26,755 nt of DNA from Promethearchaeota archaeon. Lineage in GTDB: Archaea; Asgardarchaeota; Odinarchaeia; Odinarchaeales; JBHLKK01. The stretch spans positions 1 through 26,755 of the forward strand of contig JBHLPL010000013.1 of NCBI GenBank assembly GCA_048939465.1. The letters are read 5' to 3'. The translations under genes and the position numbers were made by a program. Below are positions 18,280-22,728 of this stretch, piece by piece. The number at the start of each line of letters is the position of its first letter. Position 1 is the stretch's first letter. The notes beneath the pieces were generated by a model. That model was not told the DNA's origin. It saw only the letters and a list, made by a program, of their open reading frames with translations, and searched no databases.

Positions 18280-18561
18280 ATGGAATTCTGTCCGGAATGT
18301 GGAGCTCTCCTCGTGCCCAAAAAGAAGGGGGAAAAAACCCTCCTTGCTTGTCGAAAATGTGGTTTTACAAAGGAAGTCCACGATAAGCTTCTGGATTATA
18401 GGATTGTTTACCGAATTCCTCACTCTGAGAAGGAACGTCTGGCAATCGTTGAAGGGCCCTTAAGACAGAAGGTAAGTAAAGAAGAGAGAGAGGCCTTTGA
18501 GGACTTCTATGGAACTGGAGAGACCGAAGAGAGCGATACGGAAACGGAAGGAGAAGACTAG
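18280..18561 (+). CDS. TFS/RpoM-like protein with N-terminal zinc ribbon only and acidic tail
   Basis: MEFCPECGALLVP...LACRKCGF. No second CxxC pair and no ADE motif. Ends GETEESDTETEGED. Confidence 0.82.
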   Translation: MEFCPECGALLVPKKKGEKTLLACRKCGFTKEVHDKLLDYRIVYRIPHSEKERLAIVEGPLRQKVSKEEREAFEDFYGTGETEESDTETEGED

Positions 18562-18653: not shown

Positions 18654-18902
18654 TTGGAAGATAAGATTACAGCTTTCATAAGCATTACAACAGAGCACAC
18701 AACCCCGGAGAGTATCAGGGATCAACTGCTGAAGGTTGCAAGAATCGAGTGGCTGTACTTTGTCACCGGGGATTATGACTACATTATGAAGATTGCGTGC
18801 AAAGATATGGATGAGTTAAAAACCGCTGTGGTTGAGATTCGGAAGATTAAAGGTGTCAAAATATCAAACACCTCGATTATTCTAAGGAAACTAACTGACT
18901 AG
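18654..18902 (+). CDS. Stand-alone Lrp/AsnC ligand-binding (RAM) domain
   Basis: TAFISI, YFVTGDYDYIMKI...DMDELK..V..IRKIKGV..SNTSIIL. No HTH. TTG start after AGGAGGAGG. Confidence 0.85.
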   Translation: MEDKITAFISITTEHTTPESIRDQLLKVARIEWLYFVTGDYDYIMKIACKDMDELKTAVVEIRKIKGVKISNTSIILRKLTD

Positions 18903-19038: not shown

Positions 19039-19050
19039 AAAAAAAAAGAG
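19039..19050 (-). terminator. Oligo-T terminator after the TrmB-rod gene
   Basis: Minus strand CTCTTTTTTTTT begins 2 nt after the TAA stop. Confidence 0.6.
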
Positions 19051-19052
19051 GG

Positions 19053-21563
19053 TTACGCAAGGTCTCTCAGCTTGATCTCTCTTGAAGATGCCATCCACAT
19101 AGGACCAAAGATTTTGTGAAACAGCTCTACGTATCCAGGATGTTCAGATATTGTGGCAACGATTCTTTGAGGTTCACCTACCGCGGGGGCAAGCATTACC
19201 TCCTCAGCATCTCTTGCACATCCGAAAGAATCGCGAGCGGGGCGATCCCACACACGTATATTGCCTTTCTCCAGCAATCGCTTAATCTTCGGCACATCCT
19301 TAGTCATGTCGATTCCAGTAACCACGTGGACTCTGATTTGGGGCCGTGTTGCTAGCAGGTTCTCGATGGGTACATCTGCCAATTCTGGGATAACGATTGT
19401 TATTGTGGATTTTGTCCTCAGCAGCATATCGGTGATATGAACGAGTATGGCCGTCTTAGTTACCAAATGCCAGGATTCTTGAGCTTCGGATAGGGCGGTT
19501 CTGGACACTTCATTCCATGCAGCCATCAGCATTTCTTCATTGTTTTTGGCATCAGCACCAATTAGATTCATGCTTTCACCAGCTTTTCTGTTAATATCAT
19601 TGCTGGTTGATTTAATTACATCTATAACGGAGTCAACGTTTCCTACTAACTTGGATTTAAGTTCCTTACTGTTATCAATGTACTGTGACTCGTGGGAGGC
19701 CAACATATCGGCGTTATTACTTATGAGCCTCTCTACGCTTTCTGTAAGTTTTTCTCCCAGACTGCTGTTCACCTCTTTGGCAAATGCTGCAAAGCTCTTT
19801 GCATGCTCACTTCCAAGGGTTTTGACATCTGATTTCATTGTCTCGGTTAGTTCTCTAAATCCCTCTGAAAATGCCTTAGACGACCCTTCTACAGAGGTCT
19901 TGCTATTACTATTGTCAGCAGTGTATTTCTGAATAGCTGCCGAGGTTTTCTCTTCAATCCTGCCTTTTGATTCTTCTATTGCCGAAGATATCTGTTCAGC
20001 ATCTGTGTTCAGCTTTGAGCTCACGTCATTCTCCAAGTTCAGTAGAGCTGATTCAAACTCTGATAAGGTATCTTTTATCGTACGTGCATATGCGGTCTGT
20101 AGTAGTTTAACAGCCGTCTTGAGTTTTTTATTCTGCCCGGTAATCGTTGCCGTAATAGCTTCCTTGCTCTGATCGCTGCTCTTCGCAAGTTCTTGAAGAT
20201 AACTACTTGTGGCCGTGGTGAAATTCTCACTTGCCGCAGCTACTTCCTCCGAAATCTTGGTTTGGACCTTATCTAAGGTATCCACAGAGCTTTGCTGTAT
20301 TTCTCCGATGCTGGTCTCGTACCAATCAGTATGCTTGTCCATTGCCGAAAGCACATCTTTCTTAAAATCTTCTGATAATTTGGAATACTGATCTAATTGG
20401 GATTGGAATGTTTCCGAAATCAGCTCAATTAGCTTTTCCTTTGTTTCTGAAAGGCTATTCTCAAAGGAACCCTTGTATTGAACTAGCACCTCAGAAAGAG
20501 TCTCCTTGAGGTTTGCTGTTTCGGTTCTTAATTCGTCGTGGCTTGCGGAGAGGGTCGTATTTATAGCATATTTCAAACTGTTTGCGCTCTCATCTACACT
20601 ATTCTTCATTGAGTCGACAGTCTCAGAAAAATACTTACAGCGTTGGGATGACATATCTTGGTGTTTGGACGACCATTCAACAAAATCCTGGGAGATCTTG
20701 TCGAGAAAACCAGTCATATCGCTCTTCAGTTTCTCCCTGAAGTCTGTAACAGCAGTGTTCAGATTCTTCTGGAGGTCAGAGAATTGCTCTTTATGGTGAT
20801 CAACGCTTGAGCTCAAAACGCCTTTGAGATATGTCAAGAGTTGGTCGGAAGTATCGTCGAATGAGCCTTTGCTCTCATCCAGAACACCTACCGTTTCGGC
20901 CTTCTGTGAAGTTATTTCTCTGGAAACATCTTCCAGATTTTTATCTAAATACGAGTCTAGCTCCTCTTTGAGACTAACAGCATCTGATTCGAATCTATCC
21001 AGCAGTGCGGACATTTCCCCTACAGCTGAATTTACGAAGGCATCTGTTTCAGTTTTATCACCTTTTACACGAGAGTCAATACCAGAAGACAGATGGGATT
21101 TGGATGACTCGAGGACCTCTTGGAGAGAAACTGTCGTGTCATCCTTTGTCTTCTGAATTTGCTCTTTGGCTTTGTTTACCTGTAGATTTACTGCATTTGA
21201 AAGGGATACCTTCCATTGTGAAACATCAGTTGTTAGCTTCTTCAGGAAGGATTTGATTACTGTATCTACATCATCCCTTATCCGAACAAGTCGACCTTGA
21301 AATGCTTGAAGTTGCTTGGCAAATCCCTCATATGGTGCTACGGCAGAAAATCGAGCAACCAAGCCGGGCGTCTCTTTTGCCATATGTCTTTCCTTCAGTT
21401 TTCCGAGAATCTCAATAGTCGTATCGTAGGGTATTTCAGTGTATAGAGAAACCTCGCTAGCGGTTAGTTGTCCTACTATAAGAAGATACACATACGTTTT
21501 GGCTTCTTCCTCTGACAGATTCAGCATATCCTTCAAAATTGCTTTTAGAGTAGGTTTTTCCAA
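19053..21563 (-). CDS. TrmB-type wHTH + about 615-aa helical repeat + TrmB C-terminal-like domain (836 aa)
   Basis: N-terminal LNLSEEEAKTYVYLL..G.LTASEVS..T.IP...RFSAVAP. Central proline-free 11-residue-periodic helix. C-terminal WHL....I...I.DML...K..I.IVIP, RVHVVT, ARD.EEV.LAP, A.ISEHP.YVELF...W. TTG start after AAGGTGA. Confidence 0.85.
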   Translation of the reverse strand: MEKPTLKAILKDMLNLSEEEAKTYVYLLIVGQLTASEVSLYTEIPYDTTIEILGKLKERHMAKETPGLVARFSAVAPYEGFAKQLQAFQGRLVRIRDDVDTVIKSFLKKLTTDVSQWKVSLSNAVNLQVNKAKEQIQKTKDDTTVSLQEVLESSKSHLSSGIDSRVKGDKTETDAFVNSAVGEMSALLDRFESDAVSLKEELDSYLDKNLEDVSREITSQKAETVGVLDESKGSFDDTSDQLLTYLKGVLSSSVDHHKEQFSDLQKNLNTAVTDFREKLKSDMTGFLDKISQDFVEWSSKHQDMSSQRCKYFSETVDSMKNSVDESANSLKYAINTTLSASHDELRTETANLKETLSEVLVQYKGSFENSLSETKEKLIELISETFQSQLDQYSKLSEDFKKDVLSAMDKHTDWYETSIGEIQQSSVDTLDKVQTKISEEVAAASENFTTATSSYLQELAKSSDQSKEAITATITGQNKKLKTAVKLLQTAYARTIKDTLSEFESALLNLENDVSSKLNTDAEQISSAIEESKGRIEEKTSAAIQKYTADNSNSKTSVEGSSKAFSEGFRELTETMKSDVKTLGSEHAKSFAAFAKEVNSSLGEKLTESVERLISNNADMLASHESQYIDNSKELKSKLVGNVDSVIDVIKSTSNDINRKAGESMNLIGADAKNNEEMLMAAWNEVSRTALSEAQESWHLVTKTAILVHITDMLLRTKSTITIVIPELADVPIENLLATRPQIRVHVVTGIDMTKDVPKIKRLLEKGNIRVWDRPARDSFGCARDAEEVMLAPAVGEPQRIVATISEHPGYVELFHKIFGPMWMASSREIKLRDLA

Positions 21564-21675
21564 AGTATATCACCTTTTAGAACCAGTAATTCCGGGGTAA
21601 AAGATCATTTTTAATATTCTTTTATTGATTTATATTAATTCCTATCACAACTGCAGTAAGGCAGGGGACATAGGG

Positions 21676-22728
21676 CTAGCTCTTGGGTTTGCTGAGATCT
21701 TTTGATTTGCCCTTAGTCTCTTTGCCCTTGGGCAACCTTTCTTCTTTTTCTTTGTCTTCGGTTCTTTTGCCCTCGGATTTCTTCTCTTCGGAGTCTTTCT
21801 CAAGTGTTTGGAAAGCTTCTTGGACTAATTCAAATATCTTGTTCAAAGTTCCCGTTTTTATGCCTTTTCCCAGTGGACTTTTCCCAGGAGGTTTAACATC
21901 AACTAATAGATACAGCTTTGTCCCATCCAAACGGTAAGTGACGTAGTCAGAGTACGGCTCTAGAGAAGTCATGTAATGTTTCAGTGAGTTCACAGTCTCT
22001 TTGGGTAGACTGGTACATTTGTCCTTAATCAGGAAGCTCAAGTACCAAAAGCCATACATCTCTTCGATAATGTCTACGTCCAAGTTGCTTATCTTGGCTA
22101 GATGACGTATTAGTAGCCTCAGTTTGCCTTCCGAATCCACGGGATCATTCAGTGGGTTTATCGTTGCAATTCCATTTTCAAGATCTAGATAAAGGAGCTT
22201 ACCATCTACTGAGACAAACATCATTTTCTCCGATATATTTGGGGAATTCTCGTCATCACCTTCGTCCGGAGTTATAGTCATTTCCTGAAAGTTCCTCTTG
22301 AACTCGTCCTTTAGAACCTCAACTAACTCTTTAGGATTCTTGGGAACAAACAGAGGAAGGGAACGAGCTTTCGGAATAATCTCCAGAAACAACTTGAGAG
22401 GCATCTTTGCATCTCTTAATGAGAGATACTTGATTTTTCCGTGCAGGTAGCGTTTAATCAGACTCGTACGCTGCTGAAGGCAATACTGAGGAAGGTCATC
22501 TAATGACATACCAAGGTCGATCATCACATTGAGGAATGGACGAGAGGAGCCGCATATGGGTTTAAAGGCACACTTTATGCGGTCAGACTCACATTCAACA
22601 CAGACTTCACAAATGTGTGAGAGCAGCTCTTCGACTAGAGAGAGTACACGCTCTCGGTTATCCTCTGATGAAATGAATCCTACCAGTTTTTCGCCGTATT
22701 TTTCTATGAAGTCTTTCTCTTTGATCAT
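21676..22728 (-). CDS. Hypothetical protein with N-terminal six-Cys cluster and charged C-terminal tail
   Basis: ICEVCVECESDRIKCAFKPIC-x23-C. Lys/Glu-rich disordered tail. 350-aa open frame. Confidence 0.8.
   Translation of the reverse strand: MIKEKDFIEKYGEKLVGFISSEDNRERVLSLVEELLSHICEVCVECESDRIKCAFKPICGSSRPFLNVMIDLGMSLDDLPQYCLQQRTSLIKRYLHGKIKYLSLRDAKMPLKLFLEIIPKARSLPLFVPKNPKELVEVLKDEFKRNFQEMTITPDEGDDENSPNISEKMMFVSVDGKLLYLDLENGIATINPLNDPVDSEGKLRLLIRHLAKISNLDVDIIEEMYGFWYLSFLIKDKCTSLPKETVNSLKHYMTSLEPYSDYVTYRLDGTKLYLLVDVKPPGKSPLGKGIKTGTLNKIFELVQEAFQTLEKDSEEKKSEGKRTEDKEKEERLPKGKETKGKSKDLSKPKS

Follow-up and report, generated by a model that had tools for sequence, protein, structure and literature searches.

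A TrmBL2-type protein with a long hendecad rod and a conserved partner gene in an Asgard archaeon

The rod gene and its locus

The window analysed here, a stretch of 26,755 nucleotides of contig JBHLPL010000013.1 from a Promethearchaeota archaeon (assembly GCA_048939465.1), carries on its minus strand a gene, hereafter the rod gene, for a protein of 836 aa in which a TrmB-type winged helix and a small C-terminal domain are held apart by several hundred residues of 11-residue periodicity. We hold with high confidence that this protein is a member of an Asgard-wide family of TrmBL2-type proteins and that its centre is a helix of ~620 residues with an 11/3 period. Directly upstream, on the same strand, lies a second gene, P5, whose homologues occupy the same position in other Asgard families. 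The features of the locus are the following (PLD, phospholipase D; AF2, AlphaFold 2).

19053-21563, minus strand: the rod gene (P0001), encoding the 836-aa TrmBL2-like hendecad rod protein; open reading frame with a TTG start, orthologues of the same length
21333-21536, minus strand: TrmB-type winged helix-turn-helix, residues 10-77 (Pfam PF01978)
19452-21332, minus strand: amphipathic helix in hendecad register (residues 78-704; ~57 repeats of 11), free of proline and with a net charge of -31 (Fourier spectrum, phase and table of core positions)
19056-19451, minus strand: C-terminal PLD-like domain of TrmBL2 type, residues 705-836 (alignment of 104 homologues, AF2, Foldseek)
21676-22728, minus strand: partner gene P5 (P0005), 350 aa, directly upstream of the rod gene (open reading frame; conserved adjacency)
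21564-21675, minus strand: intergenic region between the rod gene and P5, with a TATA-like AT-rich box at ~21629-21640 and GGTGA at 21570-21574
19039-19047, minus strand: run of nine T, 5 nt past the stop codon of the rod gene (read from the sequence)

To judge from its conservation the rod gene is a real gene, since orthologues of 836 aa, at 69-83% identity and with N-termini that align at residue 1, are present in several assemblies. Its TTG start is preceded by the GGTGA Shine-Dalgarno motif at a spacing of 6 nt, and the AT-rich box ~70 nt upstream of the TTG is a putative promoter; the T9 run resembles an archaeal oligo-T terminator and may serve as one. The source genome measures 1.96 Mb and is 91% complete. 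The rod-gene stretch is also present in public DNA runs labelled as mangrove or sediment metagenomes, and among the public runs no RNA data set containing it was found.

A hendecad helix between two TrmB-family ends

The prolines of the 836-aa protein lie at residues 4, 45, 66 and 77 and then only from residue 726 onward, which leaves a proline-free stretch of 648 aa (residues 78-725), larger than the ~615 residues marked out in an earlier note on this DNA. The hydrophobicity Fourier spectrum of residues 81-696 has a single dominant peak, at the 3.67 residues that the note had anticipated, with a power of 613; in 500 shuffled controls the maximum power at any period was 58 +/- 12 on average and never above 109, and at 3.5 residues the power of the rod itself is 2. 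Sliding windows of 44 residues keep the 11/3 phase between -19 and +94 degrees in every window from residue 67 to residue 704, the phase runs through the midpoint without a jump (phase coherence R = 0.86), and the signal collapses in both end domains. When the rod is written as 56 rows of 11, large hydrophobics occupy position 9 in 79% of the rows and position 5 in 59%; for positions 1 and 2 the share is about 40% each (the two values being 41 and 38%), whereas for positions 3, 4, 7 and 11 it is 0-9%. The rod is thus built on an a/d/e/h hendecad core with 4-4-3 spacing, and its 11/3 period, with this core in phase, places it in the hendecad coiled-coil class. The register spans about 56-58 hendecads, where the note had counted at least 17.

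Residue identity at lags of 11n amounts to 9-13% against a background of 7.6%, and Tandem Repeats Finder detected no repeat in the DNA of the rod gene; the register is therefore held as a pattern, by selection, and a recent tandem duplication was rejected as the origin of the rod. Large hydrophobics number ~2.9 per 11 residues and fall within an arc of ~100-130 degrees, which makes a narrow seam. The remainder of the surface is rich in Ser and Thr and acidic (net charge -31 over 628 residues, with 76 K+R and 107 D+E), and the border between the polar and apolar faces is without a lysine collar. Pairs of opposite charge at i/i+4 exceed expectation (43 against 25.8 +/- 4.4), and a single-alpha-helix domain was nevertheless rejected, as charged residues make up only 29% of the rod. 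The flank charges, compared for parallel and antiparallel pairing, give no clear answer, the two halves of the rod differing in this respect.

A full-length monomer model, computed with AF2 from 12 sequences, is of low confidence (predicted local distance difference test, pLDDT, 51.5; predicted template-modelling score, pTM, 0.28) and was used for secondary structure only. It renders residues 77-692 helical, with breaks at 167-173, 338-344 and 551-554 that fall in polar hendecads containing glycine. Together with the absence of any Pfam match to a compact domain in this region, the model shows that the centre of the protein is an all-helical hendecad segment rather than a compact known domain, in agreement with what the note had proposed; it is compatible with an extended as well as a folded rod.

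The two ends are TrmB/TrmBL2-family domains, the N-terminal one by sequence and the C-terminal one by predicted fold. At the N-terminus, where the note had read a TrmB winged helix-turn-helix, Pfam TrmB (PF01978) matches residues 10-77 with 40.7 bits, above the curated cut-off of 25.6 and with the same boundaries in a scan of the whole genome, residues 5-93 align without gaps to TrmBL2 (E 1.6e-6), and a profile of 70 sequences of this domain retrieves TrmB (3qph, E 9e-16) and TrmBL2 (5bpd, E 2e-15) from the PDB. The C-terminal globular domain begins near residue 700 and comprises only about 135-155 aa. The C-terminal 156 residues (680-836) have no match in Pfam and no direct sequence match in the PDB; a profile of 104 sequences gives weak but correctly placed matches to TrmBL2 (E 0.07), TrmB and FAM83B, the last being a protein of PLD fold. 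The AF2 model of this domain is of high confidence (pLDDT 93), and Foldseek aligns it best with TrmBL2 (5bpi, E 7e-8) and with the effector domain of TrmB (2f5t, template-modelling score 0.71, root-mean-square deviation 2.4), followed by members of the phospholipase-D superfamily (Nuc, Zucchini, F13, FAM83). The protein stops after the PLD-like domain, so that the sugar-binding subdomain of TrmB proper is absent, as it is in TrmBL2. Of the effector-domain-like C-terminus that the note had described, the PLD-like part therefore stands and a sugar-sensing function does not. Across the alignment of 104 homologues E788 never varies, and R716, P726, R784 and D785 hardly do, which suggests a conserved site in the C-domain for a putative ligand.

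The N-terminal domain differs from that of TrmBL2 in its charge. Its recognition helix and wing (residues 45-77) carry a net charge of +1, compared with +5 in the aligned stretch of TrmBL2 and +4 in a 250-aa paralogue of the same genome. This is a property of the family, as among 60 long members the mean for the recognition helix and wing is +1.3 and the whole winged helix is slightly acidic on average; the recognition helix typically begins with S/P-[YL]-[DE], an acidic start, and in the wing R71 alone is conserved. Winged helices are able to bind proteins as well as DNA. With the basic surface so depleted, DNA binding cannot be assumed either for the 836-aa protein or for the family.

The closest known protein is TrmBL2, a chromatin protein of the Thermococcales (TK0471/PF0496; PDB 5bpd, 5bpi, 5box and 5bqt), which has the same order of domains, namely a winged helix, an amphipathic pairing helix and a PLD-like end, without a sugar-binding subdomain in either protein. 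The two differ in the pairing helix, which has about 30-40 aa in proteins of TrmBL2 type and roughly 35 residues in TrmBL2 and is replaced here, at the same place, by a helix of ~620 residues, in the charge of the recognition helix and wing, and in the conserved partner gene P5, which sets the rod protein apart. The TrmB regulators (3qph, 2f5t) have in common with the rod protein the winged helix and the PLD-like portion with which their effector region begins, and differ in having the sugar-binding subdomain. The scores against the NCBIfam models fall far below their cut-offs, both for the TrmBL2 equivalog (NF041141, 29.2 bits against 530) and for sugar-sensing TrmB (NF040851, 27.4 bits against 600).

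The P5 partner and the Asgard-wide family

A homologue of P5 lies directly upstream of a rod gene in at least 10 Asgard families (f1, f2, f6, f7, f8, f15, f17, f19, f20 and f26), the adjacency in f6, f8, f15, f17, f19, f20 and f26 being taken from coordinates or sampled loci. The arrangement is seen in the same genus, in Odinarchaeum, where the P5 homologue is 35% identical, and in a third family (genome G006), where the P5 homologue overlaps the start of its neighbouring rod gene by 4 nt; in the samples from f9, f12, f18, f21 and f23 a different gene follows the P5 homologue. Matches to the P5 family occur in 143 of the 201 Asgard genomes, nearly always one per genome, and its members share the invariant residues H38, C43, C46, C53, C59 and C83. 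The rods linked to P5 range from 836 aa here, the shortest, through 1028 aa in Odinarchaeum to ~1180-1310 aa elsewhere, and across them sequence conservation is confined to the end domains, which is what one would predict for a rod whose importance lies in its length and its seam. From this conserved order we take P5 to be a conserved partner of the rod gene, a link that is new here. A complex prediction with the N-domain and C-domain of the rod protein and P5 scored 0.11 against a mark of 0.32, which is evidence neither for nor against a physical contact. No relatives of P5 were found in Pfam, NCBI or PADLOC, a profile search of the PDB returned matches at chance level only, and the ESM Atlas gave no usable match. 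The C-terminal 30 residues of P5 (21676-21765) form a low-complexity tail rich in Lys and Glu that occurs in this genus only and is absent from the Odinarchaeum and G006 homologues.

The same genome offers shorter proteins for comparison. Two paralogues, on contigs C69 and C23, are of TrmBL2 size (250 aa, the open frames measuring 250 and 269 aa). A third paralogue, of 461 aa, is encoded on contig C79 (L002:1492-2877, minus strand); in it both end domains recur, joined by a helix linker of ~110 residues and preceded by an N-terminal extension of ~130 residues that has no Pfam match. The pairing helix has ~35 residues in the 250-aa paralogue against ~620 in the 836-aa protein. The presence in one genome of paralogues with both ends and short linkers leads us to read the 836-aa protein as a TrmBL2-type protein with a lengthened pairing helix. 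The gene on C69 (L087:1480-2232, minus strand) encodes 250 aa; in its product and in the C23 paralogue the winged helix is basic and the same end domain is matched weakly, and the two serve as an internal short-form comparison for the rod protein. Near-identical versions of the 461-aa paralogue, with 457-460 aa, occur in Odinarchaeia. The 836-aa protein is the only long rod in its own genome, and there is likewise a single long rod in a sister genome and in the complete 1.4-Mb genome of Odinarchaeum. The Odinarchaeum orthologue, at 1028 aa, is longer by 192 residues; BLAST alignments anchored at the N-terminus and at the C-terminus each extend far into the rod, so that the indel is not placeable and an argument from one-sided indels was set aside.

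An exhaustive HMMER search gathered 283 clusters, 126 of them at E <= 1e-10, with lengths of 320-1907 aa, and almost every one combines the N-domain and the C-domain with a centre that is poor in proline and in which a period of 3.65-3.68 residues dominates. The spacer between the conserved anchors varies from 108 to 1701 residues across the family, and in relatives of 1300 aa the phase coherence of the rod reaches R 0.87-0.98. All members that carry an organism name are from Asgard archaea (Hod-, Heimdall-, Atabey-, Frey-, Sigyn-, Njord-, Odin-, Hermod-, Hel-, Thor- and Wukongarchaeota). A motif scan of 185,579 species genomes, based on an alignment of 24 sequences, confirmed 36 loci, of which 35 are Asgard. 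A profile of the C-domain matches in 195 of 201 sampled Asgard genomes and in 84 of the 86 of high quality, at 1-7 places in each and in frames of up to 2092 aa. Within the searches made it is well supported, on sequence grounds, that this TrmBL2-derived hendecad rod family is specific to Asgard archaea. Databases name its members helix-turn-helix domain-containing protein, hypothetical protein or "sugar-specific transcriptional regulator TrmB", and in the searchable literature we found no description of long TrmB-type rods or of the function of the family, which the note had likewise taken to be uncharacterised.

Several side observations belong to the family and to the locus. The sole non-Asgard locus of the scan (L064, DATKTP010000090.1) is a 13-kb contig in a metagenome-assembled genome labelled bacterium Candidatus Deferrimicrobium, and it is probably a mis-binned contig rather than a case of transfer, because all 35 other loci are Asgard. 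In family f9 many matches of ~760 aa contain a single TAA or TAG within the part matched by the C-domain profile, which may be the natural stop overrun by the profile. Precomputed matches to PF25974 and PF27984 occur on homologues of the rod protein. Relatives of the source genome are labelled Hodarchaeota or Promethearchaeota by NCBI, and the taxonomy used in this analysis places it in the same order as Odinarchaeum yellowstonii, so that the labels conflict. Downstream of the rod gene lie genes for a one-ribbon TFS/RpoM-like protein (18280-18561) and for an 82-aa stand-alone Lrp/AsnC ligand-binding domain (18654-18902), both of which keep their positions in Odinarchaeum.

Possible roles of the rod protein

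The best explanation overall, which we advance tentatively, is that the rod protein is of TrmBL2 type, is paired with P5 and associates with itself into a spacer, tether or scaffold; the mechanism of spacing or tethering, taken separately, is a possibility to be held somewhat more loosely still. Very long coiled coils set distances in the architecture of chromosomes and cells in the arms of SMC, Rad50 and MukB and in the bacterial proteins Scy and FilP, the latter two of which contain hendecads; homology of the rod protein to any of these was not detected. The narrow, unbroken hydrophobic seam of the rod protein would be buried by self-association, since the subunits of TrmB and TrmBL2 pair through the same helix between their domains and since the tail of ZorA provides a precedent. 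In the Zorya defence motor this tail is, with experimental support, a pentameric right-handed coiled coil of ~70 nm in which leucines 250, 254, 258 and 261 follow the 4-4-3 spacing (PMC11946911), and a 4-4-3 seam can thus build a long parallel homo-oligomer. PADLOC models of ZorA match residues 230-696 of the rod (E 1e-14 to 1e-8), a likeness that we read by analogy as one of repeat pattern, not of homology. The rod protein is without the MotA-like membrane domain of ZorA and is not accompanied by ZorB, ZorC or ZorD, and whereas ZorA is bacterial, the rod protein is archaeal and cytoplasmic and has TrmB end domains.

A homo-oligomer of this kind would form a stiff coiled coil, straight or with a slight right-handed twist, that reaches ~90 nm on condition that the helix is extended and unbroken. 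Its winged-helix ends would hold a ligand, which may be DNA or protein, and its C-domain ends, with their invariant R-D-x-E-E site, would together with P5 hold or sense something else. The protein would then act as a spacer, tether or scaffold of set length and not as a sugar-responsive transcription factor. A role in chromosome architecture is made attractive, by analogy, by the precedent of TrmBL2, because that protein stiffens DNA and blocks SMC: in Thermococcus it covers the DNA in the form of a stiff filament, on which SMC stalls (PMC11840125). Neither activity is known for the rod protein, and the depleted basic surface weakens the case, which leaves the role a possibility. Of the DNA-binding rod that the note had envisaged, the hendecad rod is retained, and the binding of DNA has become less safe.

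Several points weigh against this spacer or tether. The winged helix is without most of the basic residues of TrmBL2, and the DNA anchor may therefore not exist. The distance between P77 and W698, measured in 97 homologues, is spread over all residues modulo 11, and a fixed angular relation between the two ends of the rod was rejected because spacer lengths are not quantised in 11s. About half of the family members have phase shifts inside their rods. Finally, the low-confidence AF2 model, with its three short breaks, suggests that the rod may be jointed or folded back on itself.

The last point leads to the main rival, in which the helix turns back about halfway along and forms a pair either with its own other half or, in antiparallel orientation, with another chain, to bring the winged helix and the PLD-like domain together and to project an arm of ~45 nm from a TrmBL2-like head, comparable to the arms of SMC, Rad50 and MukB. 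This arrangement would keep the geometry of the TrmBL2 head, which the structural matches show as two domains flanking a short helix, and the predicted breaks lie in glycine-containing polar hendecads. We consider it unlikely, while ranking it ahead of the other alternatives. The protein has neither a hinge nor a zinc hook nor a conserved motif at an apex, only the end domains being conserved, and the predicted breaks, from a model of low confidence, would yield unmatched arms of 261 and 348 residues. The 11-residue phase is unbroken through the midpoint, both here and in relatives of 1300 residues (R 0.86-0.98), and this leans against a hairpin because a loop has no reason to preserve phase. 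The comparison with SMC, Rad50 and MukB stops at the arm, as Pfam and NCBIfam find no ATPase head, hinge or zinc hook in the rod protein; the note had already set SMC aside for want of the first two.

Much less probable is a helix that lies on lipid in the manner of apolipoproteins, perilipins, alpha-synuclein or LEA proteins and tethers DNA to a membrane, which the note had listed among its options. The 11/3 period is the lipid-surface repeat of these families, and the rod shares this amphipathic period with apolipoproteins A-I, A-IV and E, perilipin, alpha-synuclein and the group-3 LEA proteins. The Pfam family Apolipoprotein A1/A4/E (PF01442) matches residues 306-474 and two further stretches with 59 bits, and homologues carry the same precomputed match; the score nevertheless remains below the cut-off of 90 bits, so that membership is not supported. 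Unlike those proteins, the rod protein has globular TrmB ends, a hydrophobic face that is narrow and a rod that is acidic and lacks the lysine collar; it has no 22-mers punctuated by proline and no 22-residue signal beyond the 11-residue one, and no membrane-related genes lie near the rod gene. The narrow seam, the acidic rod and the sub-threshold apolipoprotein match together agree better with a seam enclosed between helices than with a helix on a lipid surface, and the lipid option of the note is accordingly judged unlikely.

No more credible, and like lipid binding less likely than the fold-back arm, is an ordinary TrmB-type regulator whose long helix is a tolerated linker without a function of its own. 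In its favour, the protein has the two functional domains of the TrmB family, and databases label members accordingly. Against it, hundreds of lineages have kept the seam along 600-1700 residues although the sequence is not conserved, implying that the rod itself is under selection. Moreover, the protein lacks a sugar-binding subdomain, its DNA-contact surface is poor in basic residues, and the same genome retains TrmBL2-like paralogues of normal size.

The family shows a route by which a small protein of chromatin or of regulation became a long structural element in the prokaryotes most closely related to eukaryotes. The interior of the Asgard cell and the organisation of its chromosome are little known. 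New here are the partnership with P5, the single long rod per small genome and the non-basic winged helix, the last of which is a warning against assuming TrmBL2-like DNA binding for the family. The 836-aa member is the one easiest to express, image and test, being the shortest of the P5-linked rods and the sole long rod of its genome, with its partner alongside. Even the smallest complete Asgard genome, of 1.4 Mb, has kept a long rod. In the most far-reaching interpretation, which we regard as quite improbable at present, the P5-rod pair would be a core device of cell architecture throughout the Asgard archaea, in which a TrmBL2-derived head anchors to chromatin or to a partner and a stiff right-handed coiled coil serves as a molecular ruler. 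If this were true, the paralogues would provide rulers of ~16 to ~250 nm, with 90 nm here, that hold another cellular structure at a set distance, and they would represent, in the lineage nearest to eukaryotes, a prokaryotic forerunner of nucleoskeletal or chromatin-tethering scaffolds, sensed or regulated through the cysteine-rich P5.

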